Program-made: the position numbers and the translations under genes
The notes under the pieces: model-generated
Database searches by the model: none
Seen by the model: the letters and a program-made list of their open reading frames with translations, nothing else
What the model was told of the DNA's origin: nothing
Part shown: in pieces, positions 11,887-54,371 of the stretch
How positions within the stretch are numbered: the first letter of the stretch is position 1
How the letters are laid out: the number at the start of each line of letters is the position of its first letter
Assembly: GCA_963745835.1 (NCBI GenBank)
Contig: CAVUZH010000003.1
Coordinates: 1,376,001 to 1,440,000, forward strand
DNA length: 64,000 bases
Reading direction: 5' to 3'
Origin: an uncultured delta proteobacterium
GTDB lineage: Bacteria > Desulfobacterota > Binatia > UBA9968

Positions 11887-11980
11887 CGCGGCGACGTTGA
11901 ATCATAGTAAGGCATCTCGGGCGATTGACACCGCTTGCAGCTTCCATGCTTCGGCCGCCCAGCCAAAACAAAGGACGACA

Positions 11981-13012: not shown

Positions 13013-13052
13013 ACAACAAACGTTAGGATTTGAACAAAAATAGGGGGAGATC

Positions 13053-14081
13053 ATGAGGAGAATCGTTGCCTTTCTTCTTTTATCGGTTACATGGGCTGCC
13101 GCCGCCAGCGCCCAAACGCCCTTTTATCAGGGCAAAACAATCACAATCATAGTTTCGACCAAGGCCGGCGATGTTTACGATCTTTATCCGCGTCTGGTCG
13201 CCGAGTTCATGCCCAAACATATCCCCGGAAGTCCCAACATTATCATTCAAAACGTTCCCGGCGCCGCTGGCCTGATTGGCACCAATCAGATCTACAACGT
13301 CGCGAAGCCGGACGGATTGACCTTCGGCGCAACCTATCCGGCGCTTTATTTCGAGCAATTGGTCAAGCGTCCGGAGGTCAAGTTCGACTGGACGAAGTTT
13401 ATCTGGATTGGCAGCACAATTAATTCGAACAGTCTCATGTACATGCGCGCAGACACGCCGTACAAAACCATCGAAGATGTCCGCACCGCGTCGACCCCGC
13501 CGAAATGCGGTGCTACCGGCGTGACATCGTCCGCATATTACATGCCGAAACTCCTGGAGGAGGCGTTCGGAACAAAGTTTGATGTGGTCTCGGGTTATGT
13601 GGCTGGCCAGGATATTGACCTAGCGGTGGAGCGCGGCGAAGTACAGTGCCGCGCATTTACCATCAATGCCTTCTTTGCGCGCGAGCCGTTTATCACTTGG
13701 CGTAAGAAAAACTTCGTGAACGTACTTTATCAGACTGGAAGCAAGCAGGACGAAAGACTCAAGAACGTGCCATTGTTCAATGACTTAATGGATAAGTACA
13801 AGACGTCGCAAGAAACTAGACAGCTGGCGAAAGTGGTTCTAGCCTCCGACGAGTTCGGCCGACCACTGGTCTTCCCTCCGGGGGTTCCCGCAGACCGTGT
13901 CAAAATCATTCGCGATGCATTTAACAAAACCATCAACGATCCGGCGCTTCTAACCGAAGCAAAACGACGCCAACTCGACATCGATCCCGCGACCGGCGAG
14001 CAGTTGGACTCTCTCGCCAAGGAAGTGATGACAGCGACACCTGAAATAATCGAAAAGGTTAAGAAGCTGATCGGTAAGTAA
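13053..14081 (+). CDS. Bug/TctC family substrate-binding protein
   Basis: Family motifs; GGGGGAG RBS. Confidence 0.9.
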   Translation: MRRIVAFLLLSVTWAAAASAQTPFYQGKTITIIVSTKAGDVYDLYPRLVAEFMPKHIPGSPNIIIQNVPGAAGLIGTNQIYNVAKPDGLTFGATYPALYFEQLVKRPEVKFDWTKFIWIGSTINSNSLMYMRADTPYKTIEDVRTASTPPKCGATGVTSSAYYMPKLLEEAFGTKFDVVSGYVAGQDIDLAVERGEVQCRAFTINAFFAREPFITWRKKNFVNVLYQTGSKQDERLKNVPLFNDLMDKYKTSQETRQLAKVVLASDEFGRPLVFPPGVPADRVKIIRDAFNKTINDPALLTEAKRRQLDIDPATGEQLDSLAKEVMTATPEIIEKVKKLIGK

Positions 14082-14198
14082 AAGATGAATGTTCAGCTCG
14101 CAATCCCATGGCGCTTGGCAAGGCTCCCAACAATCAGTCGCACCGACGTAACTGACGATGCAACGGACTTGAGAGTTAATCGACAAAAAACAAGAGCG

Positions 14199-15233
14199 AT
14201 GCTGGCCGCTTCGCTCTTGTCCTTCGCTCTCATACTTGCCGGCTTAGCCTCTACCTCGCAGGCCCAGACTCCCTACTATCAAGGCAAACAAATCAGGCTC
14301 ATCATCGGCTCAAGTCCGGGCGGCGGCTACGACCTATGGCCGCGCATGATGCTGCGTTATCTGACGAAGCATATCCCCGGCAATCCGGAGATCGTGCCGC
14401 AAAACATGCCCGGCGCCGGCGGCGTCGTGGGCGCGAACTATGTCTATGGGATCGCTAAACCGGACGGGCTCACCATCGGCGCTTTCAATCCAGCGCTTTA
14501 CTTCGATCAATTGATCAAGCGCGAGGAAGTAAAATTCGACTGGTCAAAATTTGCATGGATCGGCTCGCCGGAACAGAATGATATTCTGCACTTCATCCGC
14601 ACCGACGCCCCGTATAAGACTATTGATGACCTGCGTAACGCGAAGGAAGCGCCGAAATGCGGCAGTTCCGGTACCGGCACGACCGGCCACTATATTCCTC
14701 GTCTGCTTGAAGAGGTCCTCGGGATCAAAACTCACATCGTTAGCGGCTATCAGGGCGGCGCTGAGATCGATCTCGCCATTGAAAGAAATGAGGTCGTTTG
14801 TTGGTCTCCGGTAGTGGCTACATACTTCGGCAGAGATCCCTACAAGCGTTGGCACAAAAGTGGATTCACGCGGGTCGTCCTTCAGACTGGTGAGAAGCGC
14901 GACCCGCGCTTGAAAGATGTGCCGAGCATTTGGGAGCTCATGGACCAGTATAAGACCCCGGATTCCGGCAAACGGCTGGCCAAGGTGATCTTAACAGCCG
15001 CCACTCTCGGACGACCGATTACTGCTCCGCCGGGAACGCCTGCCGACAGGGTAAAAATTCTCCGTGACGCCTACGCCAAAGCCCTCAGTGATCCTGATCT
15101 GCTCGGCGAAGCTAGCAAAAGAGATTGGGATGTGGAGCCGGTTAGCGGCGAAGATTTGGAGACACGATCGAAAGAAGTCATCGCACAGCCAGCCGAGGTC
15201 GTCGAACGAATGAAATGGGTTCTCGGAAAGTAA
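14199..15233 (+). CDS. Bug/TctC family substrate-binding protein
   Basis: IGSSPGGGYD, QNMPGAGG motifs; start uncertain (ORF track start 14085). Confidence 0.88.
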   Translation: MLAASLLSFALILAGLASTSQAQTPYYQGKQIRLIIGSSPGGGYDLWPRMMLRYLTKHIPGNPEIVPQNMPGAGGVVGANYVYGIAKPDGLTIGAFNPALYFDQLIKREEVKFDWSKFAWIGSPEQNDILHFIRTDAPYKTIDDLRNAKEAPKCGSSGTGTTGHYIPRLLEEVLGIKTHIVSGYQGGAEIDLAIERNEVVCWSPVVATYFGRDPYKRWHKSGFTRVVLQTGEKRDPRLKDVPSIWELMDQYKTPDSGKRLAKVILTAATLGRPITAPPGTPADRVKILRDAYAKALSDPDLLGEASKRDWDVEPVSGEDLETRSKEVIAQPAEVVERMKWVLGK

Positions 15234-28950: not shown

Positions 28951-29307
28951 ATGAATATCATCTCAAAAGTCTCGATGGGCAAGGCGAGTTTGTTCACGAC
29001 CTACTGGTTTATCTTCTTTCCGATTGCCTTTGTGATCAAACTCGCTGACAAAGCCGGAGCCGGAGGCGAGCAGCTGCTCATCATTCTGCTGATCCCTTTC
29101 CTTTGGTCGCTATATGGCGTCTGGAGATGTGCCTTCAATGTCCGACATTCGATGTGGGGTTATATCGCCAGAGGGTTAATGGTCGTCAACGTTCTAATCT
29201 TCTTTGGGGTTTTCTTTGCCAGCATGGCTAATGAGATCCGCAAGCCGCAGCCGGCAAAGGCCGAGGACTTACGGCAGCGCGACTATATCATAGGAACGTC
29301 CTTGTGA
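28951..29307 (+). CDS. Hypothetical membrane protein (3 TM)
   Basis: Three hydrophobic segments, WSLYGVWRCA..WGYIAR; AGGAG RBS. Confidence 0.7.
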   Translation: MNIISKVSMGKASLFTTYWFIFFPIAFVIKLADKAGAGGEQLLIILLIPFLWSLYGVWRCAFNVRHSMWGYIARGLMVVNVLIFFGVFFASMANEIRKPQPAKAEDLRQRDYIIGTSL

Positions 29308-29521
29308 CTTCATGGAGATGGACGGCGCCATTTAAACTCCGGTTACAGTCCCATTCTCAGGGAACTCAAACACGTACTCCTAGATCTCGGAAGATCGTCC
29401 ATTCCTCACCTAAGCTTAGCGCTTGTCGCCCACGGCGCGTATTGTACGTTGAAATCCCCGGCTGATTGCAAAAGCCTCAATCAATTCTGGATTTTGAATT
29501 TTCGTTTTTAAATTTGGTCGA

Positions 29522-30559
29522 TCACCGGATTACCTTATCTGCTCTTGCGAGAACCTCCGGCGGGATGATCACGCCGATCTGCTTCGCGGTCTTTAGATTA
29601 ACGACGAGTTCGAACTTCGTCGGCTGCTCGACCGGCAGCTCGGCCGGTTTGGCACCCTTGAGTATTTTGTCAATCATCGCCGCGACACGCTTGAAGGCTT
29701 CGGTCTCATCGGCCCCGTAGGACATCAACCCACCGTTGTCCACAAAGTCCTCGCGATAATAGATTGCCGGCAGACGATACTTTGCTGCCAGGTCGATGAT
29801 CCGTTTTTGGATGGCGCTTGTTTGAGACAAGCGGTGCCGGGTTACTGAAAGAGCCGTGCTTCCCGCTTTGACCGCCTCTTTGAAGCCGCTCTCGTAGTTT
29901 TCGCTGCTGCCAATCTCCATTGAATGAATTTGCAGCCCAAGTTGCCGCGCAGCTCGCTGGCTTTCGGCCCACTGAGGCTCGCTACTTCCAGAGCTTGGGT
30001 ACCATAAGACAGCGACGCGCGAGAGTTTGGCTATGGATTCCTTGAGTGCTTCCACTCGTTTCCCTGCCAAGACATCCGCCAGGGAATAAAATCCCGTCGT
30101 GTTTCCTCCCGGCCGCGCCACACTGGCAACCAAGCCGCGTGCAACTGGATCGAAAGGAGTATCAGTAAAGACAATCGGGATTGTTTTTGTAGCCTTCTTG
30201 GCGGCCAGACCGTCATTTGGACCGCCCGCAACGATGACATCGACTTTAAGGCGCACCAGCTCATCCGCCAAACCAGGAAGCCGCTCGGGCTTCTCTTCCG
30301 CATAGCGGCGCTCGAAGACAATGTTCTTACCCTCTACGTAACCGAGTTCCCGCAGTTCCCGTCGTAGTGCCTCGATGCCGAATGTACTGGAAGATGATCC
30401 CCCGCTGAGTCTTCCTATACGATAAATTTTTCCCTCTTGCTGCGCGTTCGCATAAGGGCATAGCACAAAGAGCAAACCCATCAGTGCCAGACAATAAACT
30501 TCTCGCCTTTGTGATCTTTCGATCCAGAATCGACAATCCAAAATCGAAAATCGCTTCAC
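29522..30559 (-). CDS. ABC transporter substrate-binding protein (ABC_sub_bind/COG2984), array member 21
   Basis: LGYVEGKN, ARPGGNx[17 protein letters not shown]...[19 protein letters not shown]. Confidence 0.9.
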   Translation of the reverse strand: MKRFSILDCRFWIERSQRREVYCLALMGLLFVLCPYANAQQEGKIYRIGRLSGGSSSSTFGIEALRRELRELGYVEGKNIVFERRYAEEKPERLPGLADELVRLKVDVIVAGGPNDGLAAKKATKTIPIVFTDTPFDPVARGLVASVARPGGNTTGFYSLADVLAGKRVEALKESIAKLSRVAVLWYPSSGSSEPQWAESQRAARQLGLQIHSMEIGSSENYESGFKEAVKAGSTALSVTRHRLSQTSAIQKRIIDLAAKYRLPAIYYREDFVDNGGLMSYGADETEAFKRVAAMIDKILKGAKPAELPVEQPTKFELVVNLKTAKQIGVIIPPEVLARADKVIR

Positions 30560-31560
30560 TTGATCACCTTGTCCGCCCGCGCCAATACGCTAGGCGGAAT
30601 CATCAAACCAATCTGCTTCGCGGTTTTTAAGTTGATCACAAGCTCGAACTTCGTCGGCTGCTCCACGGGAATATCGGCGGGCTTCGCTCCTTTGAGAATT
30701 TTGTCGACGTAAGTGGCGGCGCGTCGATAGAGTTCAGGTACATTCACTCCGTAGGACATCAATCCACCGGAATTTACGAACGCATCCGTCCAATAGATCG
30801 CAGGCGTTTTGGTTGCGATCGCCATTGAAACTAACTGCATCCGGTGACCAGCGAAAAACTGACTCGATATCAGGGTCATGGCGTCTAGGCGCTTTTTCAT
30901 GAGAATCGTGGGCAGTTCTTGGACATCCTTAAGCTCGCGCGCGTTAAGAATTTCCACCTTCACCCTTCTGCCGTGCGTCACTCGCTCGACCTCCTTTAAT
31001 TGCGGAGCGCTAATCGGATCAGACGGGTTAGTAAGCACCCCGATCAGCTTCGCCGAGGGGAAAGTTTCCATTAGAAGTTCTGTGCGCTTGCCGCTCAGCT
31101 CGACATTCATGTTGGTGAGGCCCGTCAGATTTCCGCCGGGATTGGCGAGGCTCGCCACCATTCCGGCACCTAGAGGATCAGCAACTAAGGCAAAAACGAT
31201 CGGCGTTGTCGGCATCGACTTCTTGGCAGCCAGTGCCGCGGGCGTAGAGGATGCTAGAACTACATCCGGTTTGAAGCGATCGATCTCTTCGGCCAGCTCG
31301 GCAAGCCTGCCTGCGCGGCCCTCAGCGTTCCAGAGCTCGATTGTAGCGTTTTGGCCGGCGACGTAGCCGAGACGATTCAGCTCTTCGAAAAAAGACTCCA
31401 TATTCGCGCGTTGTTGATCATAGGCGAAAACTGCTATGCGCAAGATTTTGCCTGGCGCCTGCGCCTGAGCGTAAGCACAAAGGGCAAAGAGCAGAGCGCT
31501 CAGGCAGGTAAGCGCAAAGAACAAAGCCCGAAGCCGAAAAGAAATAATGTCTCTGTTCAT
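30556..31560 (-). CDS. ABC_sub_bind protein, member 20
   Basis: Same motifs, intact. Confidence 0.9.
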   Translation of the reverse strand: MNRDIISFRLRALFFALTCLSALLFALCAYAQAQAPGKILRIAVFAYDQQRANMESFFEELNRLGYVAGQNATIELWNAEGRAGRLAELAEEIDRFKPDVVLASSTPAALAAKKSMPTTPIVFALVADPLGAGMVASLANPGGNLTGLTNMNVELSGKRTELLMETFPSAKLIGVLTNPSDPISAPQLKEVERVTHGRRVKVEILNARELKDVQELPTILMKKRLDAMTLISSQFFAGHRMQLVSMAIATKTPAIYWTDAFVNSGGLMSYGVNVPELYRRAATYVDKILKGAKPADIPVEQPTKFELVINLKTAKQIGLMIPPSVLARADKVIK

Positions 31561-31602
31561 GATCCTTTTACTATGCTGTTGCCTAATGGCTATTACCTGC
31601 TG

Positions 31603-32616
31603 TTATCGAATCACCTTATCCGCTCTGGCCAACACATTCGGCGGAATCGCCAGGCCAACCTGCTTGGCGGCATTTAAGTTTATCGCCAGCTCAAACTTTG
31701 CCGGTTGTTCGACCGGTAAGTCGCCCGGCTTCGCGCCTTTTAAAATCTTGTCGACATAAATAGAGAGGCGCCTGAAAACCTCGAGATCATCGGTTGCATA
31801 CGACATCACGCATCCGGCATCTACGTACTGCCGGGCCTCGCACATCGAAGGCAGTCGATTCTTTATGGCCAGATCTGAAATTTGCCTCATATGCGGCCCG
31901 AGCACGGCATGACTCACCGTAATTAGCGCCTGTACTTTTCTCTGAATCGCTTCTCGAATTGCGCCTGCCAAGTCAGGATTCGGACGGGTCACCTGCAGCG
32001 ATTGGAGCTGTATCTTCAACGCTTCGGCAGTAGGCTCGTAGCTTTGGAACGCGGTTCCTATACCTAGTGCAGTCGGGCGGACCCAAAGAACGCCGACGCG
32101 AGAAATCGATGGGATGATCTCCTTGAGTATCTCCAACCTCTTTCCACTCAGGTCGCGAGTGAGGCGCGCAATCCCGGTGACGTTTCCGCTCGGACGCGCT
32201 AGGTCGTCAACTAAACCGGTGGCGACCGGGTCCTGATTGGTCACCATAACAATCGGGACGTTCTTAGTGGCCTGCTTGGCAGCACGGACTGAGGTTGGAT
32301 CTACGGCTATGAGAATATCGACCTTCAGTTGCAGAAGTTCCTTAACCAGATCGGTAGGCTCGAATTTCCCATCGGAGTGGCGGGACTCGATCACGATGTT
32401 TTTTCCTTCAACGTACCCGAGATCTCGCAACCCATCCTGCAGTGCTTTGAACTGCCGCGGTATGGGGGCGCCGGCGCTTGGCAGATAACCAATCCTTGGA
32501 ATTCTCTCCGGCTGCTGCGCTTCGCTAAACGAGCAAAGCGCAAACAGCATAGTGGCAAGAGTAAAACAAAAAACTTTCTTGTTCTTCGCAAAATCCAAAA
32601 ACGAAAATTGAATCAC
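31603..32616 (-). CDS. ABC_sub_bind protein, member 19
   Basis: Same motifs, intact. Confidence 0.9.
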   Translation of the reverse strand: MIQFSFLDFAKNKKVFCFTLATMLFALCSFSEAQQPERIPRIGYLPSAGAPIPRQFKALQDGLRDLGYVEGKNIVIESRHSDGKFEPTDLVKELLQLKVDILIAVDPTSVRAAKQATKNVPIVMVTNQDPVATGLVDDLARPSGNVTGIARLTRDLSGKRLEILKEIIPSISRVGVLWVRPTALGIGTAFQSYEPTAEALKIQLQSLQVTRPNPDLAGAIREAIQRKVQALITVSHAVLGPHMRQISDLAIKNRLPSMCEARQYVDAGCVMSYATDDLEVFRRLSIYVDKILKGAKPGDLPVEQPAKFELAINLNAAKQVGLAIPPNVLARADKVIR

Positions 32617-33605
32617 TTGATCACCTTGTCCGCTCTCGCCAGCACACGCTGCGGAATAGTCACGCCTATTTGCTTCGCAGTTTTAAGATTAATCGCCAAT
32701 TCAAACTTGCTCGGCTGCTCTATGGGAAGGTCGGCAGGCAGGGCGCCTTTCAGAATCTTATCCACATAGACGGCTACACGACGGTAGCTGTCCGCGAGGT
32801 CTCCCCCGTAATATATCAGCCCGCCGGCCTCTACCGCTTCTCTGTTGTTGTAAATCGATGGCAACCGTCTTCTTATTGCGTAACCGGCGATCCGTTCATA
32901 GTTACCAGAGATTCGCGTCCCGGAGAGTACATAAAGAGCATCCGTGCGCTCCTTGTTAGACGTACCGAATGCTCGCTCGAAACCGTCTGCGTCTGGTACC
33001 TCCCAAGGCTGAACAGTTAATTTCAGCACCCGTGCTGTCTCTGGGAGGATCTCTTTCACCTCGCGTACCTGGGACGTATTGGCCGGATCGTAGAGAACCG
33101 CGACACGGGCAATCTTCGGAACCACTTCTTTGAGTAGCTCCAGACGCTTACCGCCCAGTTCTCTGGCAAAGTTTGTAAGGCCGGTGACGTTCCCACCGGG
33201 TCGGGCAAGGCTTTTAACCAGCCCTGCCTCAACGGGATCGGACCCGCCCATCATAACGATGGGAATGGTATTGGTCGCATTCTTGAGCGCCCGCGCGGGA
33301 TTGTTTCCTCCATCTACTATAACGATATCAACCTTCAGACGCACCAGCTCGGCCGCAAGCTCAGGAAACCGATCGCGCTTCCCCTCCGCGTACCGGTATT
33401 CGAACGCGATGTTCTGTCCTTCTATGTAGCCTAACTCGCGCAGCGCGAGCCGAATTCCCTCAGAATCGGCGGATTCACTATTGGGGGTGCCCGGCATTAA
33501 ATATCCTACTCGGTGAACTTTCTTTGGCTGCTGCGCATCGGCAACATGGACACTGTTCATGGTAAAGACAATCACCAGAAGAACAGTTGCGGAGTTCTTT
33601 TTCAC
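32613..33605 (-). CDS. ABC_sub_bind protein, member 18
   Basis: Same motifs; GTG start overlaps the TGA of an orphan stub. Confidence 0.9.
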   Translation of the reverse strand: MKKNSATVLLVIVFTMNSVHVADAQQPKKVHRVGYLMPGTPNSESADSEGIRLALRELGYIEGQNIAFEYRYAEGKRDRFPELAAELVRLKVDIVIVDGGNNPARALKNATNTIPIVMMGGSDPVEAGLVKSLARPGGNVTGLTNFARELGGKRLELLKEVVPKIARVAVLYDPANTSQVREVKEILPETARVLKLTVQPWEVPDADGFERAFGTSNKERTDALYVLSGTRISGNYERIAGYAIRRRLPSIYNNREAVEAGGLIYYGGDLADSYRRVAVYVDKILKGALPADLPIEQPSKFELAINLKTAKQIGVTIPQRVLARADKVIK

Positions 33606-33696
33606 TTGATCACCTTGTCCGCCCGCACCAGTACGTTCGGCGGAATCGCCGTACGACTTTAGATTTTGGATTTTCGATTTTGGATTGTTCGATCAT
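33602..33696 (-). repeat. 91-bp gene-less unit (heptamer tract plus SBP 3'-end stub)
   Basis: ATGATCGAACAATCCAAAATCGAAAATCCAAAATCTAAAGTCGTACGGCG + ATTCCGCCGAACGTACTGGTGCGGGCGGACAAGGTGATCAAGTGA; near-identical to 52136-52231. Confidence 0.9.
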
Positions 33697-34745
33697 CGGA
33701 TTACCTTATCTGCTCTGGCTAATACAGCTGGTGGGATCGTCACGCCGATCTGTTTGGCAGTTTTTAAGTTGATCACGAGCTCGAATTTAGTGGGCTGTTC
33801 GACCGGGAGATCGGCCGGCTTGGCGCCCTTGAGGATTTTGTCTATGTAAATAGCCGCCCGGCGTTGCAGATCGCCAAGGTTAACACCGTAGCTCATCAGG
33901 CCACCTGCGTTGACAAAGCCTTGTCTTACAAACACTGCCGGCAGCCGGCTTTTTGCGGCGTGATCTGCAACCGATTTCGGATCAACGTTGAATATGGGGC
34001 CGCCGAGCACGAGGATCGCATCAGCTCGAGCGCTACGCGCGTCTCGAAACGCGCGGTCGACTTCTTTCGGATGGCGCACGTCTACATACTGAAGTTGTAC
34101 TCTGAGTGCGGCGGCGGCGCGTTCTGTCTCCTTAAGTCCTTCAGCATCGCCCGGATTGTTTGAAGAACCTAGGACTGCGACATGAGATAGGCCAGGAAGG
34201 ATCTCCTTCAGAAGCTCCAGCCTTTTTCCGCTTACCTCGGGGCGGACTGTGGACAACCCAGTAATATTTCCGCCGGGTCGTGCTAGGCTTGCGATGAAGC
34301 TGCTGGCGACAGGATCGTTATCCTGGAGCATAACAATCGGAATCCTAGTCGTAGCCGCCTTGGCAGCGCGGGTTGCCGTTGAACCGCCGCTTAGAATAAC
34401 GTCGACCTTCATACGAACCAGCTCGGCAGCCATTAGAGATAGCTGATCCGGCTTCCCCTCCGCATGCCGGTACTCAAATGCGATATTCTGCCCTTCGATG
34501 TAGCCTAGCTCACGTAAACCTTCTTTAATCTGCGCAAGACCGCCACCTGTTAAGGAAACGGTACTCGCATACAGGAACCCCAATTGTGGGATTTTTTCCG
34601 CTTGTTGCGCCTGAAGCGGAAGGCAAATCGTCAAGAGCAAACCGCTCAATAAAAGATAAAATACATTGTGCCGTCTTGTTCCAATCCACAATCCAAAGCA
34701 TGTCCTGAGCCATGCCGAAGGATCAAAAATCCAAAATGGGATCAT
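33693..34745 (-). CDS. ABC_sub_bind protein, member 17
   Basis: Intact; leader contains the DPSAWLRTCF insert. Confidence 0.9.
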   Translation of the reverse strand: MIPFWIFDPSAWLRTCFGLWIGTRRHNVFYLLLSGLLLTICLPLQAQQAEKIPQLGFLYASTVSLTGGGLAQIKEGLRELGYIEGQNIAFEYRHAEGKPDQLSLMAAELVRMKVDVILSGGSTATRAAKAATTRIPIVMLQDNDPVASSFIASLARPGGNITGLSTVRPEVSGKRLELLKEILPGLSHVAVLGSSNNPGDAEGLKETERAAAALRVQLQYVDVRHPKEVDRAFRDARSARADAILVLGGPIFNVDPKSVADHAAKSRLPAVFVRQGFVNAGGLMSYGVNLGDLQRRAAIYIDKILKGAKPADLPVEQPTKFELVINLKTAKQIGVTIPPAVLARADKVIR

Positions 34746-34872
34746 TTGATCACCTTATCGGCCCGTGCCAAGACGCTAGGCGGAATCATCAGATCAATTT
34801 GCTTGGCGGCTTTGAGATTGATCACCAGCTCAAATTAGTTGGCTGCTCGACCGGCAAGTCGGCAGGCTTGGA
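34742..34872 (-). pseudogene. Orphan 3' end of an ABC_sub_bind gene
   Basis: [41 protein letters not shown] with no gene body; abuts the hicB upstream region. Confidence 0.9.
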
Positions 34873-34953
34873 CCGGATTACTCCCGTTCTCATTTCACCA
34901 CAGCTTGTGATCACAGGAGCGGCTGATATAGCAATTGTAGCTCTGGAGGAATC

Positions 34954-35199
34954 ATGATGCGTTACTCGGTGCTTCTTGAACCCATAAACGAACCAGAGTT
35001 TCAGGGCTACTACTACGCTCATATTCCGACTCTCGACCTGACCACCCATGGCATGGGAATCGAAGGCGCCCTTGGCGCTGCCCAACAGTTGGTCGAGGCC
35101 TGGGTTGAAGAGAAAAGGTCACGTGGCGAAACCGTTCCTGTCGAAGCGAAATCCTTGATTGCACACGTCGAAATTCCGGATGCCGTACTCCGCCCGTGA
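34954..35199 (+). CDS. hicB: HicB-family antitoxin (short form)
   Basis: YSVLLEP...[27 protein letters not shown]....GETVP pattern; GGAGG RBS. Confidence 0.85.
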
Positions 35200-35386
35200 A
35201 GTCCTCGCAAAATTGATTCGCGCCGGCTTTATAGAAGTAAGACAGAGCGGTAGCCATAAAGTCCTGCGGCATCCAGATGGCCGACAGACTTACGTAGCAA
35301 TGCATCCAGGAACGCTGCCAACAGGAACCTTTCGCAAGATTCTTAAGCAAGCCGGCCTGACTGAAGAACAATTTCGGTCGTTGTGA
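35180..35386 (+). CDS. hicA: HicA-family mRNA interferase toxin
   Basis: REVLAKL.RAGF...RQSGSH..LRHPDGR...V.MH...L..GT...ILKQAG. Confidence 0.9.
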
Positions 35387-35423
35387 ATTATCCCATTGTA
35401 AGTAAATTTGGCTGTGCCTCTTC

Positions 35424-35565
35424 TCATCTGATCACCTTATCCGCTCGCGCCAACACATTCGGTGGAATCGCCATCCGATTTTAGATTTTGGATTTTGGAT
35501 CCTTCTACGGAGTTTATTCTGAGAGAGCCGAAGGGCTCAGGAAAGATTTTAGATTGTTCGATCAT
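35424..35565 (-). repeat. Gene-less unit plus stub carrying a ~47-bp palindromic insert
   Basis: Same unit as 33602-33696 with CCTTCTACGGAGTTTATTCTGAGAGAGCCGAAGGGCTCAGGAAAG inserted at GAT^TTT. Confidence 0.85.
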
Positions 35566-36641
35566 CGGATCACCTTGTCCGCTCTTGCGAGCACGTTCGG
35601 CGGGATCGTGAGACCGATCTGCTTCGCGGCGTTAAGATTGATCACCAGCTCGAACTTCGTCGGCTGTTCCACCGGGAGTCGGCAGGCTTTGCGCCTTTCA
35701 GAATCTTATCGACATACGTGGCAGCGCGGCGGTATAAGTCAGGCGATGTTCGCCCCGTAATACATAAGGCCACCCGTGTCTGTCCACTGGACGTTTGGGT
35801 ATATGGCTGGCATACGCGTCTGTTCCACCAGCTCCAAAATCGTTTTTCGGTGAGGAGTTAAACCAAGGTTACCTAAACCGGTAATGAGACCGCCAACACG
35901 CTCCTTAACCATGAGGCGGAATGCGCCCTCAAGATCCGGATTGGGAGTTTTTACCTCTACAAGTTGAAGCCTGACTCCTAAGGCCTGGGCCGTTACCTCC
36001 GCAGCCTGGAATCCGGCTCTATTCGGCGAACTGAGCGGTTCATTAAGGAAGACAAAGCGCGCGATCTTCGGCACCGCCTCTTTCAAGAGTTCCAGTCGCT
36101 TTCCAAGCACCTCCGGGGTGAGGTTTGTCAAACCCGTGACGTTTCCCCCCGGACGGGCCAGACTGGCGACGAGGCCGGTCTCAACAGGGTCAGCACCGCT
36201 TGCCATAATAATCGGAATCGTAGTGGTTACCTTCTTGGCGTGACTGGCCGCCGAGTATGACTCCGCAACAATGATTTCAACCGGGAGTCGAACGAGTTCC
36301 TCAGCCAATGCGGGCAGTCGTTCGAGTCTACCGTCAGCGTACCTGTATTCGATGGTGATGTTTTTCCCCTCGATGTAGCCCAATTCCCGCAAACCTCGAT
36401 GGAAAGCCTCAAGGTTCCGCGGCGCAGGTGCACGGGAATCTGACGGATGAAGATCGCGCGACAGAAAGCCTATCCTGAAAGTATTTTTCGGCTGCTGCGC
36501 CATCGCGGACGGACATTGCGCGAAAAGCATCGCGCTAACCGTTAAACAAAAGGCGCTCAATGGGGCTACGTACCAAAGAATACCACTGATCGTGGAAGGA
36601 TCACTTTGCGTTTCACGCGGCTTGCCTTTCGCCTTCTTCAC
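35562..36641 (-). pseudogene. ABC_sub_bind protein, member 16 (frameshifts near 35742 and 35678; may be sequencing errors)
   Basis: ORF 35739..36641 continues in other frames to ARADKVIR*. Confidence 0.75.
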
Positions 36642-44935: not shown

Positions 44936-46028
44936 CGAATTACCTTGTCGGCCCGCGCCAGCATACTTGGCGGAATTGTCACCCCAATTTGGTTGGCCGT
45001 CATCAGATTGATTGCCAACTCGAATTTGGCGGCTTGCTCGACGGGAAAATCGGCTGGCTTGGCGCCTCTTAGGATTTATCGACGTAGAGTGCCGCGCGTT
45101 TGTAACTCTCGGCATCATTGGATGAATACGCAATCAGGCCGCCGGGTTCTATCCATAAGCCCGAGTCATACATCGACGGCAGTTTATATTTGATAGCATA
45201 GTTCACGATTTGCTTTCGGTGACGATTCAGAAGGGAATTACCTATTGTGATCAGAGCTTTCGCTCGTGTTTGGGCAGCAGATTCAAATGCGGCATCCAGA
45301 TTAGGGTCAGGGCCTCGCACCTCTAGAGACTGCAATTGAATTCTTAACGCCTGAGCCGCAGCCTGGTACTCCCGAAAACTTATTTTTGGTCCCTCCGCGC
45401 TTGAATCCCAAAGGATGGCGACGCGCGCAATCCCGGGAATTAGCTCTGTTAGTAACTCCAGCCGTTTCCCTCCTAACTCCCGGGTGAGGCGGCTAACCCC
45501 AGTGACATTCCCCCCCGGGCGAGCCAAGCTATCGACAATCCCCGTCGCGACTGGATCCTGATTGATGACCATGACGATGGGAATTGTCTTGGTCGCCTGC
45601 TTGGCGCTGCGGATCGCGGGGTCGTCGCCAGAGATAAGCACATCGACTTTGAGTTGCACGAGTTCCGCCACGAGGTTTGGAATCCGGTCGCGCTTGCCCT
45701 CGGCATAGCGAAACTCGATCAGAATATTTTTACCCTCAACGTAACCTAGATCTTCTAGGCCTTGGCGAAACGCCTCGACATTAGGGCCCGGAGGAGAAGG
45801 AACGCCAACCACTCTCAGATAGCCTATCCGTGGAACTTTCGTTGGCTGCTGCGCCTGAGCCACAGCCCCACAAAGGTTAGATGCGAAAACGACTGCGAAG
45901 ATCGCCACCCATCTTAGATTTTGGATTTTAGATTTTGGATTGTTGGCAGAAAGAGATTCGGAGCGGATTAGTTTCGTAACGTCTTTTCTGCGCATTCCAA
46001 AATCCAAAATCGTAAATCCAAAATTCAC
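44932..46028 (-). pseudogene. ABC_sub_bind protein, member 7 (one A missing in an A-run at ~45075; probably a sequencing error)
   Basis: YVDK then ILRGAKP...ARADKVIR* in the next frame. Confidence 0.75.
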
Positions 46029-47054
46029 TTGATCACCTTGTCCGCTCGTGCCAGCAAGTTCGGCGGAATCGTAAGGCTGATCTGCTTGGCGGCTTTGAGA
46101 TTGACCACTAGTTCAACGTCGCCGGCTGCTCTACTGGTAGATCAGCCGGCTTCGCTCCTTTGAGGATTTTGTCGACATAGGTTGCAGCGCGGCGTTGTAA
46201 ATCGGCAAGACTAACCCCATAGCTCATCAGCCCGCCTGCATTCACAAAATTTTCCCTGACATAGACCACTGGCAGCCGGCTTTTTGCTGTGCTGCAAGTT
46301 CTTTTGGCTTGACGTTGAATATCGGACCTCCTAACACAAGAACTGCCTCCGCCCGCTCCGCGCGCGCTTCTCGAAACGCTGCCTCAATATCTTTCACACC
46401 ATGCACGTCCAGATATTGAATCTGCAGTTTGAGTGCGCCGGCAGCGAGTTGTGTCTCCTTGAGTCCTTCGGCGTTGCCGGGGTTGTTCGATGAGCCGAGG
46501 ACCGCTACTCGGGAGAGCCCGGGGACGATTTCTTTCAAAAGTTCCAGCCGCTTTCCGCTTATTTCTGGTCGTAGCGTCGATAAGCCGGTAATGTTTCCGC
46601 CCGGCCGTGCTAGGCTGGCGATAAACCCGCTTCTGACAGGATCGTTATCCTGGAGCATGACAATCGGGATGGTGCTGGTGGCCTCCTTGGCAGCACGAGT
46701 CGCCGTAGAGCCGGCCGTAAGAATAACGTCAACTTTTAGCCGGACCAGCTCATCAGCGAAGGTAGCTAAACGATCTAAGTTTCCGCCCGCCTGTCGCCAC
46801 TCGATGACGATGTTCTTTCCTTCCACATAGTCTAATTCGGCCAAACCTTCTTTGACCGCCGCAGGTCTGCCGCTTTCTCCCGGCCCGGTACTTGCCGCGA
46901 GAAAGCCCACTTTAGGGATTCTTGCGGATTGCTGAGCCTGCGCGATCGTGCAAACACCAAAGAGCAGAAGTGCAAAACAGCAAAGCGCGAAGAGCATAAA
47001 ACGACGCAGAGTGTTCTTGCCGACTTTTGATCTCTGACATTGGATCTGTGTCAC
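46025..47054 (-). pseudogene. ABC_sub_bind protein, member 6 (frameshifts near 46290 and 46115)
   Basis: Close paralogue of member 17; tail KSRLPVVYVRENFVNAGGLMSYG...ARADKVIK* is out of frame. Confidence 0.75.
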
Positions 47055-48046: not shown

Positions 48047-49009
48047 TTGATTACCCGATCGGCTCTGGCTAATACATGTGGTGGGATCGTCAGGCCGATC
48101 TGTTTCGCAGTCTTCAGATTGATCGCCAACTCGAACTTACTCGCCTGCTCGACCGGCAGGTCGGCCGGGTTTGCGCCTTTCAGAATCTTATCGACATAAA
48201 ACGCAGCGCGCCGGTAAATTTCGTCTCGATGAGCATCATAGGATGCGAGGCCGCCATCTTCGACAACTGTCACGCTCTCCGACATCAACGGCAGTCGATG
48301 TTGTAGCGCAAGATCGGCGATTTGCTTTCGGTGAACTGAGAGCGAAGGAACACTAGTTGTGATGATTGCGCTGACCCGCTCCTTTACGGCAACTTGGAAA
48401 AGCTTAGGCAAGTCGGCAGTTGGCGCTTGCACTTCGAGGATTTGAAGCGGCACCTTGAGACTCCGCGCCGCATCCTCATAATCTTTAAATGCCCCAAAGC
48501 CCGAAAGAATTCCGACCCGCGAGAGCCGCGGAATCATCGCGGTCAGTAGTTCCAGCCGTTTGCCGCTCAGGTCTCGGGTAGCTGACGTAAACCCGGTGAT
48601 ATTTCCTCCCGGATGCGCCAGACTATTAACCAGACCAGATGCTACCGGATCCGGAGTAATCGCCATGACAATGGGAATCGTTTTGGTCGCCTGCTTGGCT
48701 TCGCGGATGACGATCGCCTGTGTGGAGAAAATGAATATCGACCTTGAGGCGCACGAGTTCGGCGACAATTCCCGGGACGCGAGACCTATCTCCCTCGTTG
48801 TTGCGATATTCAAACAAAATATTTTTCCCCTCAAAGTAACCGAGCTCTTGCAGCTCTTGCCGGAATATTTTGATTCTCGAACTAGGGTCGGTGGCAATGC
48901 CTGTGACGATTCCTATGCGCGGGATTTTCGTAACCTGCTGCGCCTGAACTGTGGAGCACGTGGCAAAAAACAGAGAGCATAGAGTAAGCGAAATAGTTTT
49001 TTTAGTCAT
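48043..49009 (-). pseudogene. ABC_sub_bind protein, member 4 (+1 frameshift at ~48735; may be a sequencing error)
   Basis: ORFs 48626..49009 and 48043..48897 join at LKVDI/IFSTQ. Confidence 0.75.
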
Positions 49010-49056
49010 ACTCGGCTTCCTGTTTCCGATCTCGGACGTCTGACTTCTGGTCCCTG

Positions 49057-50097
49057 TTATCTAATCACCCTATCCGCCCTTGCCAGGATATGCGGCGAAA
49101 TGGTAGCGCCGATCTGTTTTGCAGTCTTTAAATTGATCACCATTTCGAATTTGGTTGGCTGCTCGACCGGAATGTCGGCTGGTTTGGAGCCTTTCAAGAT
49201 CCTGGCCAGGTAGCGCGCGCCATCAAAACCTTCAATGCTGTAGCCCGGTCCATAAGCCATGAGATTGCCGTTATCAGCGTAATCTGCTCGCGCACATATC
49301 GATACCCAGCGGTAACGCATCGCCAGATCGGCGATCCTCTTCTGATTCGAGTTGGCTAACGGGTTTAACGTCACGGCAAGAGCGCCGCTGTGCGCCTTGG
49401 CTGCTTCTTTGAACGCCTCCTCATACTTATCGGCGCTGCTTACCTGCATTGAATGTAGCTGCAGGCCAAGCTCTCGTGCCGGCACTTGGCTGTCTTGCCA
49501 CTGCGGCGCGGAGCCGGGAGCTTGAGGGTCCCATAGCACGGCAACACGGGAGAGCTTCGGAACGATTTCCTTTAGCAGCTCCAGTCGTTTGCCTGCTAAA
49601 ATGGCCGCCATGTTGGTGATCCCCGTGCTATTCCCTCCGGGTCGCGGCAGGCTATCGACCAGTCCCGCGGTAACAGGATCAGTCACGCCCATGAAAACGT
49701 GCGGAATAGTCTTGCTAACACTGCGAGCGGCTTGAGCGGCATTGGTCGTGACGGTTACAAAAACGTCAGTCTTAAGCCGGACAAGTTCGGCTGCAAGCTC
49801 CGGAAGGCGGTCAAAGTTCCGGTCCTCATGGCGATACTCGATAAAAATGTTCTGCCCCTCGATATAGCCGAAATCCCGTAGCGCCTGCCGGAATGCCTCT
49901 TTGCGCGGGGCATCAGCGGCCGGTGATACCGCGGCCAGATAACCGATGCGCGGAACTTTTTTCGGTTGCTGCGCCTCGGCTTCCGTCCAGCACAGCACGA
50001 ATATGACAACTAGGGCGAGCATCCCTGCCAATTTTGGATTTTGGATTGCCGATTTTCGATTGTCGGAAACAGACTCCGAAGGAACCGCGTTCATCAC
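49057..50097 (-). CDS. ABC_sub_bind protein, member 3
   Basis: Intact; leader SDNRKSAIQNPKL is a translated heptamer tract. Confidence 0.9.
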   Translation of the reverse strand: MMNAVPSESVSDNRKSAIQNPKLAGMLALVVIFVLCWTEAEAQQPKKVPRIGYLAAVSPAADAPRKEAFRQALRDFGYIEGQNIFIEYRHEDRNFDRLPELAAELVRLKTDVFVTVTTNAAQAARSVSKTIPHVFMGVTDPVTAGLVDSLPRPGGNSTGITNMAAILAGKRLELLKEIVPKLSRVAVLWDPQAPGSAPQWQDSQVPARELGLQLHSMQVSSADKYEEAFKEAAKAHSGALAVTLNPLANSNQKRIADLAMRYRWVSICARADYADNGNLMAYGPGYSIEGFDGARYLARILKGSKPADIPVEQPTKFEMVINLKTAKQIGATISPHILARADRVIR

Positions 50098-50149
50098 TTT
50101 GTTCTCCTGCTTTCAACCCAAAAGTCTAAATTCGAAATCCAGAATCGGA

Positions 50150-50190
50150 TTACTTGATTACTCTATCGGCTCTTGCCAGCAGGTTGGCTG
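50150..50190 (-). repeat. Orphan SBP 3'-end stub downstream of the nuclease
   Basis: GCCAACCTGCTGGCAAGAGCCGATAGAGTAATCAAGTAA = [12 protein letters not shown], followed by a heptamer tract. Confidence 0.85.
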
Positions 50191-50250: not shown

Positions 50251-51024
50251 TTACTTGAAAATATTATTCAGCAACCACTCCAGCCTCATTCCCGCCTGAG
50301 CCAGCCGTCGTCTGACTATCATGAGAGCGGTTGCCACGTATTCGTCTGACAATTCCATGGATTCTCCAACGGTATAGGCATCGGACCTCGATAAACGAAA
50401 TGATTCGTCAGTCCACGTTTTCGGCTCGCCAGACTGCCATTCAGAGCGTTGCTTCGGTGTAATGCTCTGGTCCAATTTCTTGGCTAGTTCCTCGGCGTTG
50501 CCTTCTTCCATGTCGACGACGTTGAAATCCCAGAACAGATGGAGGTTCTTCGTCTGTCCTCTATAACTCACGGTAATTTCGGTTCCACCTCTATCTTCTC
50601 GCCTACCTGCATGTAGAGGCTGATGCATATCATTTACTAGATGGGCCACGTACCGGAGAGCAATCAGTCGCACATTGATCGGCACCTTAACGTCAGCGAT
50701 AATCGAGGTAAACCAATTTAAAGCCTCAACCATGCAATTTCTTGCTTTACAGTCTCGTTCTTGATCGTAGCCGGCGGCATCATCGGGAATGCTGACGTGA
50801 TGCAGCCGATCGAACTCTGTTATTCGCCTACCTTCCCTGTCAGGCCACACAGCTGCATCGGCCAGTGTCGTGCCATCAGGAAGAAGCTTCCTCACCTCTT
50901 CTCGTGCCTGCTCCGTGAGCTGCGTATCGGCTAAGATAGCTACAATTCGATGGCCCTTGTCGCCCCAGCCGTAGGCTACGTCGCGCAATGGAAGCATGAA
51001 CGCGAATGCAGCAGTAGCCGACAA
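50251..51024 (-). CDS. S1/P1 nuclease
   Basis: Signal then WGDKGH, AVWPD, HLVNDMHQPLH, DRGG and NLHLFWD Zn-binding motifs. Confidence 0.92.
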   Translation of the reverse strand: MSATAAFAFMLPLRDVAYGWGDKGHRIVAILADTQLTEQAREEVRKLLPDGTTLADAAVWPDREGRRITEFDRLHHVSIPDDAAGYDQERDCKARNCMVEALNWFTSIIADVKVPINVRLIALRYVAHLVNDMHQPLHAGRREDRGGTEITVSYRGQTKNLHLFWDFNVVDMEEGNAEELAKKLDQSITPKQRSEWQSGEPKTWTDESFRLSRSDAYTVGESMELSDEYVATALMIVRRRLAQAGMRLEWLLNNIFK

Positions 51025-51047
51025 GGATCAGCTTGTAGATAAACAGC

Positions 51048-51119
51048 TCACCTTGGGCGGAGAATCGCCGTACGACTTTCAGTAGATTTTGCGATTTTTG
51101 ATTTTGGATGGCAGATCAT
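51048..51119 (-). repeat. Degenerate gene-less unit with a truncated stub
   Basis: ATGATCTGCCATCCAAAATCAAAAATCGCAAAATC...GTCGTACGGCGATTCTCCGCCCAAGGTGA. Confidence 0.7.
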
Positions 51120-52083
51120 CGGATTACTTTATCTGCTCTCGCCAGCACATTCGGCGGTATCGTCACGCCGATCTGCTTTGCCGTCTTTAAGTTGATCACT
51201 ATCTCGAACTTCGTCGGTTGTTCCACTGGCATTTCGCTCGGTTTAGCGCCTCTTAGAATCTTGTCTACGTAGACAGCAGCGCGTCTAAAGAGCGCCGGAT
51301 CATCAGCTGAATACGAGATGAGCCCTCCCGCCTCTACGCGAGCGGCCACTTCATGCATAGTCGGCAGTCGGTTTTTGATGGCAAATTGTAGGATCTGCTT
51401 CGTGAAAGGGTTCAGTGTGCGACTTGCAACCGGCATAAGCCCGTTCACTCGTGCTCTCACAGCAGCTCGAAATGCGCCCTCCAGATCGGGTTTAGAACCG
51501 TTTACCTCGATGGATTCGAGCGAAATCTTCAGCAAGCGTGCCGCAGTCTAATAGTCTCGGAAACTCGATGACCCGCGGACCGCAATGATTCCTAAATGTG
51601 ACAGGCTCGGAACCGCCTCCTTGAAAATTCCAGTCGTTTTCCACTTAACTCATGGGTAAGTCTGGCGAGTCCCGTGATATTTCCGCCTGGGCGTGCGAAA
51701 CTATCGATTATGCCTTTCTCCACCGGATCAAAAGAAGCCACCATAACTATGGGGATCGTTTTCGTTGCTTTCTTGGCTTCAACGATTGCTCCTGCACTCG
51801 AACTAACCAGCACATCGACATTAAGTTTTATGAGTTCCTCGACGAAGCCCGAGACTCGATCCGGATTTGTCCCGGGATAGCGATATTCAACGTGGATGTT
51901 TTCTCCTTCGATGTAGCCTAAATCTCGGAGCCCGCGCCGGAAGGACTCGACGAACACGCCGGGATTATTGATGCTGCCACTGCTCGCCGCATATCCAACT
52001 CGTGGTATTCTCGCTTGCTGCTCGGCGTTGAGAAGAGAAACATTGGTCAGAAAAAGGAACCAGAAAACAATCTTGCTAATCAT
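51116..52083 (-). pseudogene. ABC_sub_bind protein, member 2 (frameshift at ~51626 plus in-frame TAG at 51548-51550)
   Basis: ORFs 51592..52083 and 51116..51535; the nonsense codon suggests real decay. Confidence 0.8.
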
Positions 52084-52135
52084 TGCTTCCGTTCCATTTA
52101 AGCTGGTCAGTACTTACCATTACGCTGCTCGACCA

Positions 52136-52231
52136 TTATTTGATCACCTTATCCGCACGTCGCCAGCACATTCGGCGGAATCGCCGTACGATTTTAGATT
52201 TTGGATTTTCGATTTTGGATTGTTCGATCAT
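52136..52231 (-). repeat. 92-bp gene-less unit plus stub
   Basis: Translates as MIEQSKIENPKSKIVRRFRRMCWRRADKVIK*; near-identical to 33602-33696. Confidence 0.9.
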
Positions 52232-53209
52232 CGGATTACTTTGTCAGCTCTACCCAAAACATTGGGCGGAATGGCTACGCCGATCTGCTTGGCCGCTTTC
52301 AGATTAATCAGTAGTTCGAATCTCATGGGAAGTTCCACGGGTAAGTCTGCAGGCTTGGCTCCTTTAATAATCTTGTCGACATAAATTCCCGCACGACGGT
52401 AGAGGTCGCCGTAATTAACCCCATAGCCCATCAGCCCGCCGTCTTCGATAAACTGCCCCGTTTGATACATCGCCGGCAACCGAAGATTTGGTGGCGAGAT
52501 CGACGATTCGTTTTGAATTCAACGTCATCAGCGCGCCCCCCGGTATAACTAGAGCGTCCGGCTGAAGTTGCTTTAAGACGTTCGCGGCGCCCTCGATATC
52601 TCCTGTGCTTCTGACCTCGTGAGGCCGGAGCTGTAGCCCAAGAGCCTTGGCGCCCTTTTTTGCTCCGTCGAGAACCTGCGCTGCAAGCTGGCCAGCTTCG
52701 GGATTCCACAGCATCGCGACCATGGTGATTTTCGGGAACGCCTCCTTGAGCAGATCCAAACGCTTACCCATCATTTCAGGGCCAGCGCTGCTTGATAGTC
52801 CGGTAACGTTTCCGCCTGGGTATGCCAGGCTCTTGACCAAGCCGGTGGCAACAGGATCAAATCCGATGCCTACGATAGGCGTTCGGCTATTTGCCTGAAG
52901 AACAGCGCGAGTGGCGGCAGGCGTAGTTGTAAGAATAACATCAAGATTGAGCGCGACGAGTTCCGTCGCAAGCATCGCCAGTCTGTCCGAACTCCGCTCG
53001 GCATAGCGGTACTCGATAGAAATGTTCTTGCCGTCAACGTAGCCTAAATCTCGCAATCCCTGGTGAAATGATTCCAGATGAGGTTGATCCCTCGACCCGA
53101 AGAACAGAAATCCCAAGCGAGGAATCTTCGCCGGATGCTGCGCCTGGGCCACCTCCCCCCAGGCCGTCAATGTCAGAACGACTGCAAGGAGGCCGACAAT
53201 GTGTTTCAT
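52228..53209 (-). pseudogene. ABC_sub_bind protein, member 1 (+1 frameshift at ~52486; may be a sequencing error)
   Basis: ORFs 52415..53209 and 52228..52479; AGGAGG RBS. Confidence 0.75.
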
Positions 53210-53774
53210 GCCCCTCCTATTTTAGATTTTCGATTTTAGATTGCCGATGGGACGGAAAACTTCCATTTCGCTTCTGATGAGTCTTATACAAGTTCAATGA
53301 ACCGTAATGCCACTAGTTTAGTGCGTTGTTTGAATAAGATTTCGTCCGGCGTGTTCCCGATCTAAACTCGGCAATCGAAAAATTGAAAATTGCTTGATCA
53401 TGGCCATTGCCCCTACCGCAACGGATATGCCACAAAACAAACTCTATGAAAATAATAATTTAGGAACCGCCGAAGTGGTGAGAGGTGGCCGTTTGACTAC
53501 AGGGGAGTATCAGATTTGCTGCGCTACAAGGATCACATCCTCGAGACTGCCTGTCGAGACTGCCTGTGGTCCGATGGAGTGCTCCAACCTTATGAAACAC
53601 GGTCGCGAGATGGCCATGGTCTTAGTCGATCACGCAGCTTGCCTACAGGGCACTCTCACTCCTCACAAAACCCCCTCATAGAATTAAGGCCAGCCGTCGG
53701 GAAACGTTTCTGATGCCGCGGTAAAATCTTGAGGTATCTAGTTATGTGCCGTGCGCCGGCGACGTTGTTGCCTT

Positions 53775-54371
53775 TCATTTCCTGGGGCGTTGGCACCACC
53801 CCAGAGCTTCTTCCAACCGATCATTTCCCCAGAACAATTCCTCGTCGGCAATGAAGCTAGGTGCCCCGAAGATGCCGAGATCCACTGCTCGGTCGGTCTG
53901 TGCCCTAAGCATGATCTTTGTCTCGGCGGAACCAACGGCCTCGAGGACAGTGTCTGTATTCTGATTCACCGAACTCAAGCAGGCGGCGATCACGCGGCGG
54001 TCGGCAATGTCTTGATCTTCGGCGAAGTTAGCGTGATAGATCGCTCGAACAAAAGCGGGCGTCCACGCTTCACTTGAGAAACGGCAGGCGATTCGCGCGG
54101 CCACTAACCCGTTGCGCGGGAACTGCGATGGACGGCGGAATGGCAGGCGTTGCGCTTCGCAGATGCGCTCCAGATCGCGCCACATGTAACGCCCCTTTAC
54201 CGGGTACAAGTTGAATGGCGAGTCGTTCCACCCCTGCGCCCGGAACATTCGGCTGAGCAAAAAAGCGTTCCACGACAGCGGCACGCCGCGCTCCCGCGCG
54301 AGTTGTTCGATTCGCATCGCAGTGGGATATGAGTACGTGCTCGCAAAATCGAACCAGAAGGAAAGTGTCAT
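53775..54371 (-). CDS. 2-hydroxychromene-2-carboxylate isomerase / DsbA (GST-kappa) family protein
   Basis: FWFDFASTYSY, KGRYMWRDLER, GIFGAPSF, LFWGNDRL. Confidence 0.9.
   Translation of the reverse strand: MTLSFWFDFASTYSYPTAMRIEQLARERGVPLSWNAFLLSRMFRAQGWNDSPFNLYPVKGRYMWRDLERICEAQRLPFRRPSQFPRNGLVAARIACRFSSEAWTPAFVRAIYHANFAEDQDIADRRVIAACLSSVNQNTDTVLEAVGSAETKIMLRAQTDRAVDLGIFGAPSFIADEELFWGNDRLEEALGWCQRPRK

Follow-up and report, generated by a model that had tools for sequence, protein, structure and literature searches.

In the present study we have analysed a 64,000-nt stretch of DNA from an uncultured delta proteobacterium of the Binatia (G000:C3:1376001-1440000, here called the window) and, within it, a unit of about 95 nt that recurs between the genes of a tandem array of ABC_sub_bind (PF04392) binding-protein (SBP) genes, located on the minus strand at ~29.5-53.2 kb. 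The unit consists of both ends of an SBP gene, the body being absent, and we judge it probable, at about two chances in three, that it is the stub of a deleted SBP gene, spread and kept alike by homologous recombination or gene conversion, and not a new mobile element. A previous sequence-only reading of the window had described it as a minimal mobile unit that restores an anchor after inserting and may relay translation to the next gene. The genome (G000) is a metagenome bin of 7.28 Mb in 25 contigs, with 53.8% GC and 9.3% contamination; every genome compared with it is likewise a metagenome bin, in which repeated arrays are prone to assembly error and frameshifts may be assembly errors. Further SBP arrays are found in G000 on contigs C19, C22, C24 and C14, and 114 SBP gene ends are detected in this genome by a profile of the 48 nt with which these genes end.

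Copies of the unit in the SBP arrays

Three copies (A, B and C) lie where the sequence-only reading had placed them, each directly after the stop codon of an ABC_sub_bind gene. The distance from this stop to the stop of the unit is 91 nt in A, 92 nt in B and 138 nt in C, and ORFs of 28, 31 and 42 aa, respectively, overlap the upstream stop through an ATGA. The two degenerate copies it had listed (D and E) are real. The copies in the window and the genes on both sides of A are as follows.

33602..33696, minus strand: unit A, whose head (33647-33696) shows an ATG overlapping the upstream TGA and then AAAATC octamer repeats
33602-33646, minus strand: orphan SBP tail of unit A, reading IPPNVLVRADKVIK and a stop; the TGA overlaps the GTG start of the next gene
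33693..34745, minus strand: SBP gene upstream of A (PF04392, 350 aa), ending ...ARADKVIR and a stop with the block ATCCGATGA
32613..33605, minus strand: SBP gene downstream of A (PF04392, 330 aa), whose GTG start overlaps the stop of the orphan tail
52136..52231, minus strand: unit B, with a head identical to that of A at 58/59 nt and a 1-nt insertion in the tail
35424..35565, minus strand: unit C, with a 47-nt insert (35498-35544) splitting the head; tail at 35424-35468
51047..51119, minus strand: copy D, a head with an internally deleted tail, abutting an S1/P1 nuclease gene
29484..29525, minus strand: copy E, a degenerate head only, after the last gene and at the 3' end of the array

The genes on either side of A are in the same frame and 90 nt apart. 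Two DNA contigs from public runs bridge the joints of A without differences, X1 (293 nt, 33395-33687) and X8 (57 nt, 33662-33718); these runs consist of short contigs, none of which covers the whole stretch of A, and X1 may come from the source sample. RNA contigs from public runs match conserved tail-like parts only, with 3-4 differences. The insert of C carries a CCTGAGC...GAAGGATC motif that is found in the opposite orientation in ordinary spacers. Four more copies of ~90 nt (F, G, H and I), missed by the sequence-only reading, lie in a second SBP array on contig C19, between the following pairs of tails.

C19: F 398091/398181; G 400299/400388; H 406459/406546; I 413380/413468

The two ends of an SBP gene

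The tail, which comprises the 3' 45 nt of the unit, corresponds to the last 15 SBP codons (IPPNVLxRADKVIK and a stop) and aligns with the end of every gene of the array. The head, the 5' ~50 nt, is formed by the overlapping ATG and the AAAATC-type octamers, and in full-length paralogs these octamers encode the Lys-rich start of the signal peptide. The core of the head of A is identical at 30/31 nt to the N-terminal coding region of one of these paralogs, the gene at 45069..46028, and at 26-27/31 to two other SBP genes; the match scores 57, the best of 500 shuffled targets reaching 29. Because the tail matches SBP 3' ends and the head matches the SBP signal-peptide coding region, the unit is seen to hold both ends of an SBP gene without the body. 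The size is 87-92 nt as compared with ~1000 nt for a gene, and in A the frame of the ATG differs from that of the tail, so that no family-frame ORF runs through the unit. With homologous parts, a missing body and no through ORF, the unit has the features of a remnant of an ABC_sub_bind (PF04392) gene. An origin of the head from the coding stretch just before the tail, as a tandem duplicate of the last ~28 codons, was also considered and dropped, the signal-peptide match being far stronger. The search program nhmmer extends ordinary SBP gene ends into the head region.

45069..46028, minus strand: full-length SBP gene whose signal-peptide start (NNPKSKIQNLR, then WVAIF) is made from the same octamers as the unit head
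49057..50097, minus strand: full-length SBP gene with reverse-arm repeats in its N-terminal coding region (SDNRKSAIQNPK, then LAGML...)

Octamers in the orientation of the unit follow 7/114 SBP tails in G000, all of them belonging to the unit family (six units and copy D). The opposite orientation is found at 11/114 ordinary junctions, between the stop and the next ribosome-binding site. The variable positions of the head are the 7th and 8th base of each octamer and not a codon phase.

Distribution in relatives

With a 131-nt probe the complete unit was detected in further genera of this family. A sequence-only model (A1/R1) was built from 12 units and searched against 121 genomes of the order: R1 gave matches, many of them ordinary gene ends, in 78/87 genomes of the family and in 0/5 and 0/28 genomes of two sister families. 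Among the 150 matches listed, to which 1016 further rows are to be added, at least 64 outside G000 cover the whole unit (model ≤11 to ≥96) and come from 29 genomes and 14 genera of one family, the six weakest, at 42-46 bits, being uninspected. Fourteen of the 64 belong to the unpublished genomes G018 and G106, without which 50 matches, 27 genomes and 13 genera are left; one row of A1 (L002) also derives from G018.

After deduplication, 39 units with an nhmmer score ≥45 were inspected, of which G000 contributes 6 and loci of relatives 33; L011 (G012) and L114 (G106) are among the units. SBP homology lies directly upstream in 39/39, and searches of G000 and the relatives gave no copy away from an SBP gene end. 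The position directly 3' of an SBP stop, which the sequence-only reading had proposed as a check, is therefore found in all the units inspected, in the genome and in the relatives. Downstream, 18 units have an SBP match starting within ~160 nt and 2 have SBP sequence further in; in the remaining 19/39 what comes next is a different gene, a tail fragment alone or a second unit, or the flank is too short. The non-SBP genes, named by eye, include PIN-like, S1/P1 nuclease, AAA-type and group-II-intron reverse transcriptase (RT)-like, and a homologous S1/P1 nuclease gene also follows a unit in another genome (L105, G005). The closest SBP loci in named records belong mostly to metagenome-assembled genomes of Candidatus Binatia or 'Deltaproteobacteria bacterium', and a full-text literature search gave nothing on such SBP arrays or on this unit.

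The joints of the unit are stereotyped. On its upstream side the unit is joined to the preceding gene within the final codons of the latter, where ATCCGATGA is common to 12/12 aligned units and where 37/39 of the inspected upstream genes read ...VIR or VFR and a stop in the slice taken; the joint between head and tail falls always just before ATTCC. In the gene 45069..46028 the hydrophobic core begins GTGGCGATCTTC, the orphan tails begin (A)CGGCGATTCCG, and GGCGAT is present in both, which makes it a plausible deletion joint between head and tail. The K-L-I-R-S of the N-terminal extension of the same gene resembles the K-V-I-R end, and a candidate upstream joint would be 'K[VL]IR'. Such an origin of the joints by microhomology is putative and drawn from few sequences.

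Identity between copies and probable gene conversion

The observation of the sequence-only reading that near-identical copies stand between diverged neighbours holds. Units A and B match at 92.4% over 92 nt (blastn-short E 6.5e-28); they are 92-98% identical only from -25 to +75 of the upstream stop and 34-74% identical elsewhere, and on C19 H and I reach 98-100% across the unit with flanks of 24-80%. The genes in front of F and G are ~80% alike, and hence F and G are taken as co-duplicated.

In G004, a genome of the same genus, one contig (L100) is orthologous to window positions 51116-53798, with 91.5% identity over 2703 nt. The genes flanking B are 94.6% identical to their orthologs, with third-position divergence of 32/305 and 35/317 (10.5% and 11.0%), whereas B and its ortholog B' are identical at 68% in the head, 76% in the tail and 84% at the end of the upstream gene. 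Over 120 aligned positions A and B share 105, B and B' 91, and A and B' 89, the last 13 nt of B being those of B'. That a copy resembles its paralog more than its ortholog over a short tract is a signature of gene conversion; the tract from -25 to +75 and its sharp edges give the pattern of concerted evolution.

The surroundings of copies D and E also differ between G000 and G004. Between the gene upstream of D and the S1/P1 nuclease gene (50251-51024 in G000, minus strand), G004 carries two additional SBP genes together with an insert-bearing unit, and in G000 the upstream tail switches to a unit-type end inside the tail. At E orthology (85.6%) extends over the final ~150 nt of the gene, the head and the outer flank, the body of the gene differs and G004 lacks one gene of G000; the head is better preserved in the orthologs of E in G001 and G004. 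The switch within the tail at D, together with the shared gene end and different body at E, suggests that breakage and rejoining of the arrays take place at the conserved gene end.

A mere duplication of the unit along with its upstream gene, by which the sequence-only reading could have been overturned, does not seem to explain the units: the six placeable unit-bearing genes need 6 changes as compared with 5.9 for shuffled labels, in a weak tree with 39/67 forks open. This was a quick maximum-likelihood tree of 70 C-terminal parts; 36/106 SBP gene ends of G000 lack 200 stop-free codons upstream and were dropped, including those of the genes upstream of B, C, D and G. These stop-interrupted genes mean either that many paralogs are pseudogenes or that the bin carries indel errors, and both genes flanking B show one gap column each against intact orthologs in G004. 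A 1-kb probe for empty and filled alleles of A found no ortholog spanning the junction in 7 other genomes of the genus; the best matches cover the downstream gene only, at ~80%, the same level as paralogs.

In 21 intact orphan tails the variation by SBP-frame codon position is 0.10/0.06/0.29, close to the 0.13/0.11/0.36 of 92 real tails (Spearman 0.86, 42 columns); 18/39 units failed the strict filter for this set, and several (B, F, L006, L128) carry indels. Judged by eye, the tail is read from the ATG out of the SBP frame in ~20/39 units and in the SBP frame in ~8, the rest taking the third frame or an early stop. These tails were probably imported over and over from working genes and then decayed; the same pattern would result if different full genes had each lost their bodies independently at these short homologies.

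RNA structure and translational coupling

The CGGCG/CGCCG hairpin pointed out in the sequence-only reading exists in A and B and is not conserved. In 12 units 75.5% of the cells pair as compared with 73.9% after shuffling, 153/500 shuffles pair as high and there are 0 compensatory changes. Unit A folds no better than shuffled sequence (z = 0.16), and in the 12 units the consensus fold (-8.8 kcal/mol, covariation term -0.12) shows nothing beyond chance. A scan of the whole window with Rfam 15 at the gathering score gave no match at the unit; its sole match is a c-di-GMP-II riboswitch (RF03169, 45.5 bits) at 3746-3830, minus strand, upstream of a 1220-aa Kelch/TIG-domain ORF (23-3685). No promoter- or terminator-like site was found in A or C in a scan of 29000-36500, overall counts being at shuffle level, and no peptide frame is conserved among the 39 units.

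The signals for coupling are those of the gene ends. The 3' end of the 16S rRNA (contig C1) is GGATCACCTCCTTTCT, and the gene-end sequence AGGTGATC is complementary to it over 8 nt. The tails end in (A/G)TGA in 78/114 cases, and the stop-start overlaps (ATGA or GTGA) with the Shine-Dalgarno (SD)-like AGGTGATC upstream are what is expected from the sequence of a coupling joint. Two of the three frames of the unit stop ≤10 nt from the end of the tail and the third is the frame of the overlapping downstream start. Since the stub keeps a start at the head and a stop/start joint at the tail, ribosomes could be relayed through it, and a role in translational coupling is possible. The relay to the next gene proposed by the sequence-only reading is thus compatible with the sequence of A, where the GTG overlaps the TGA, and is not general: of the 18 units with a downstream SBP match starting within ~160 nt, only A (at +2) has this match within 30 nt of its end.

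Neighbouring features of the arrays

Relics of other shapes accompany the unit, among them eight orphan tails with unrelated upstream sequence and the following three features.

C19:381684-381883: 199-nt variant stub between SBP tails, in which the orphan tail is preceded by the two arms of an inverted repeat of GAAATYCG type
C19:389416-389738: 322-nt stub between SBP tails, which retains the start and the signal peptide, with ~60 codons ahead of the tail
34742..34872, minus strand: SBP 3' fragment, an orphan relic of ~130 nt and different shape, cut off by a hicAB insertion

The hicAB-like pair occupies 34954-35386 on the plus strand, opposite to the array, between C and the SBP 3' fragment; the HicA_toxin domain (PF07927) is at 35159-35386 and the preceding 81-aa ORF has no Pfam match. 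No ABC permease or ATPase was found among the neighbouring ORFs scanned. Short tandem repeats with a period of 6-8 nt (TCAGAGN, GGCGTGAG, GGAGCAAG and AAAAGC types) crowd the SBP spacers throughout G000, for example at window positions 49000-49057, and are placed between the stop and the next ribosome-binding site. A second paralog array in the window, at 4439-15233, contains eight tripartite tricarboxylate receptor genes (TctC, PF03401) and one TctB gene.

Some SBP genes have the SD and the AUG enclosed in a long inverted repeat, whose forward arm (GATTTT octamers) follows the previous stop and whose reverse arm (AAAATC) is located ~15 codons inside the gene; the unit itself has the reverse arm only. 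In the gene 45069..46028 this fold has -44.7 kcal/mol (z -4.67, 0/200 shuffles as good) and in 49057..50097 it is no better than shuffles (z 0.25). The structure may be a translational control hairpin. There are ~15 such sites in G000, some of them away from SBP genes; those noted for the SBP genes are as follows.

Window, minus strand: 45890-46030 and 50005-50152
C19: 401390-401484, 410128-410215 and 417530-417649
C22: 240988-241103
C24: 391824-391934

Discussion

We propose that the stub would have arisen by joining the beginning of an SBP gene, namely the start codon with the ~14 codons for the Lys-rich part that opens the signal peptide, to its last 15-17 codons. The ~45-nt block at the gene ends may serve both as a translational-coupling joint and as a homology patch for unequal crossing-over and gene conversion. 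As the stub is bracketed by one such block on each side, it could be duplicated, moved between gene pairs, overwritten or deleted like a full cassette, the agent being presumably the homologous recombination of the cell itself. The two stereotyped joints would be explained by a single origin, or by deletions recurring at the same short homologies, after which the stub would have spread within the Binatia-like family, some copies being intact and freshly copied from working genes and others decaying. In this mechanism the stub probably has no function of its own.

Several points speak against this proposal. Both joints are kept and the mean column identity is ~81% across the 12 copies, which come from several genera; if conversion were rare, this would be a greater persistence than junk should show. 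At least 35/39 units have the ATG, and ~20 units share one peptide frame (...KSKIVRRFRRTCW...), which could reflect shared descent or weak selection. Orthology is established at two loci of the window, B/D and E, and the conversion between A and B may have run in either direction, as may the change between G000 and G004 at D. The SBP tree, in which 4/10 of the unit-bearing genes were dropped as frameshifted, is poorly resolved and not decisive.

A rival reading is a functional relay or insulator, a mini-cistron in which ribosomes would restart at the overlapping ATG, read an ORF of 22-31 codons and stop at the orphan tail, whose SD-like AGGTGATC and overlapping start would then load the next gene, so that selection would keep the coupling where a gene has been lost. 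The ATGA overlap, the two frames ending near the end of the tail with the third entering the downstream start, the GTG of A, the complementarity to the 16S rRNA and the retention across the family are all in keeping with it. Nevertheless the unit has all of these features by inheritance from ordinary gene ends. Only A, among the 18 units that have a near downstream SBP match, has it at the unit end, the others being 30-154 nt off behind spacers, and behind ~19/39 units there are non-SBP genes or tail fragments, or the flank is too short. Lengths and frames of the unit vary and B has diverged faster than its neighbours, and we therefore regard the relay as unlikely. A related proposal, which we find somewhat more doubtful, is that the stub is an integrase-free 'blank cassette', positively maintained in the SBP arrays of the Binatia and acting as a landing pad at which whole SBP or foreign genes would be swapped by homologous recombination, or as a mini-cistron that would keep ribosomes flowing across a gap; the frequent adjacency to hicAB, PIN-like genes, a nuclease and a group-II-intron-like RT would then reflect that role. 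If this minority reading were true, the stub would represent a functional operon 'spacer' of a new kind.

A gene for a small basic peptide (MxEQSKIxNxKSKIVRRFRRTCWRGRTR), or a structured or regulatory RNA, would account for the frame shared by ~20/39 units and for the short open frame that is always present. However the tail varies at third positions of the SBP frame and not of the peptide frame, ~8 units read it in the SBP frame, others use the third frame or meet an early stop, and the variable positions of the head follow the octamer; with neither RNA structure nor covariation nor an Rfam match at the unit, we consider both forms of this idea very improbable. Scarcely any weight is left to a strict minimal mobile element, non-autonomous and inserted at SBP stops by a dedicated transposase, integrase or site-specific recombinase. 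It was suggested by the near-identical copies between diverged genes, by the stereotyped position after the stop codon, by the many copies per genome and across genera and, in the window, by an IS200-like Y1 transposase gene (PF01797) at 62248-62961 on the minus strand, beside which no octamers were seen. Nevertheless the unit has no terminal inverted repeats such as those of miniature inverted-repeat transposable elements (MITEs) or other non-autonomous transposons, no hairpin, and no target-site duplication beyond the homologous gene end. No integrase or recombinase, IntI included, was detected beside the array by a Pfam scan of 31 non-SBP ORFs of the window, small or unlisted ORFs being outside the scan; no copy lies outside the SBP arrays and both halves are SBP gene sequence. 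Autonomous or site-specific mobility is thus not supported, and the 'anchor' of the sequence-only reading is retained, as the unit does re-create the conserved gene end.

The stub of a deleted gene would explain a striking repeat without the need of a new mobile element, and it shows the turnover of very large SBP paralog arrays in an uncultured soil lineage, with the 114 gene ends that are detectable in a single genome. One 45-nt gene end appears to be both a translational joint and a recombination handle, at which genes, foreign inserts and stubs would be shuffled, overwritten and lost, and these arrays may offer a natural case of homology-driven cassette exchange.

Comparison with known systems

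The octamer arms of the head are, like repetitive extragenic palindromic sequences or their doublets (REP/REPIN) and like MITEs, a dispersed repeat in both orientations, with ~15 inverted pairs in G000; unlike those elements, the unit has a single arm, forms no hairpin and is confined to SBP gene ends. The likeness to integron cassettes, including those without an ORF, lies in the array itself, in units of similar size with a conserved end, some of them gene-less, and in an order and content that differ between close relatives. In contrast, the conserved element here is a coding 3' gene end with no conserved structure instead of an attC hairpin, no IntI was found among the ORFs scanned, the 'cassettes' are all paralogs of one family and the breakpoints fall in homologous sequence. 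Coupled overlapping genes (ATGA or GTGA) provide a third parallel, as most gene ends combine (A/G)TGA with SD-like last codons and the stub keeps both signals, although coupling through a gene-less mini-ORF is here only inferred and a direct coupling to the next gene is absent from most stubs.

The silent pilS and vls cassettes are examples of gene remnants in tandem multigene families that gene conversion keeps alike. There is no evidence that the unit donates sequence to an expression locus or drives variation, as such cassettes do, and it measures only ~95 nt, corresponds to the two extreme ends of a gene and keeps the same joints in many genera. With these remnants it shares the truncated family copies within an array, the patchy identity by which paralogs exceed orthologs, and the conserved flanks that would serve as substrates for recombination.

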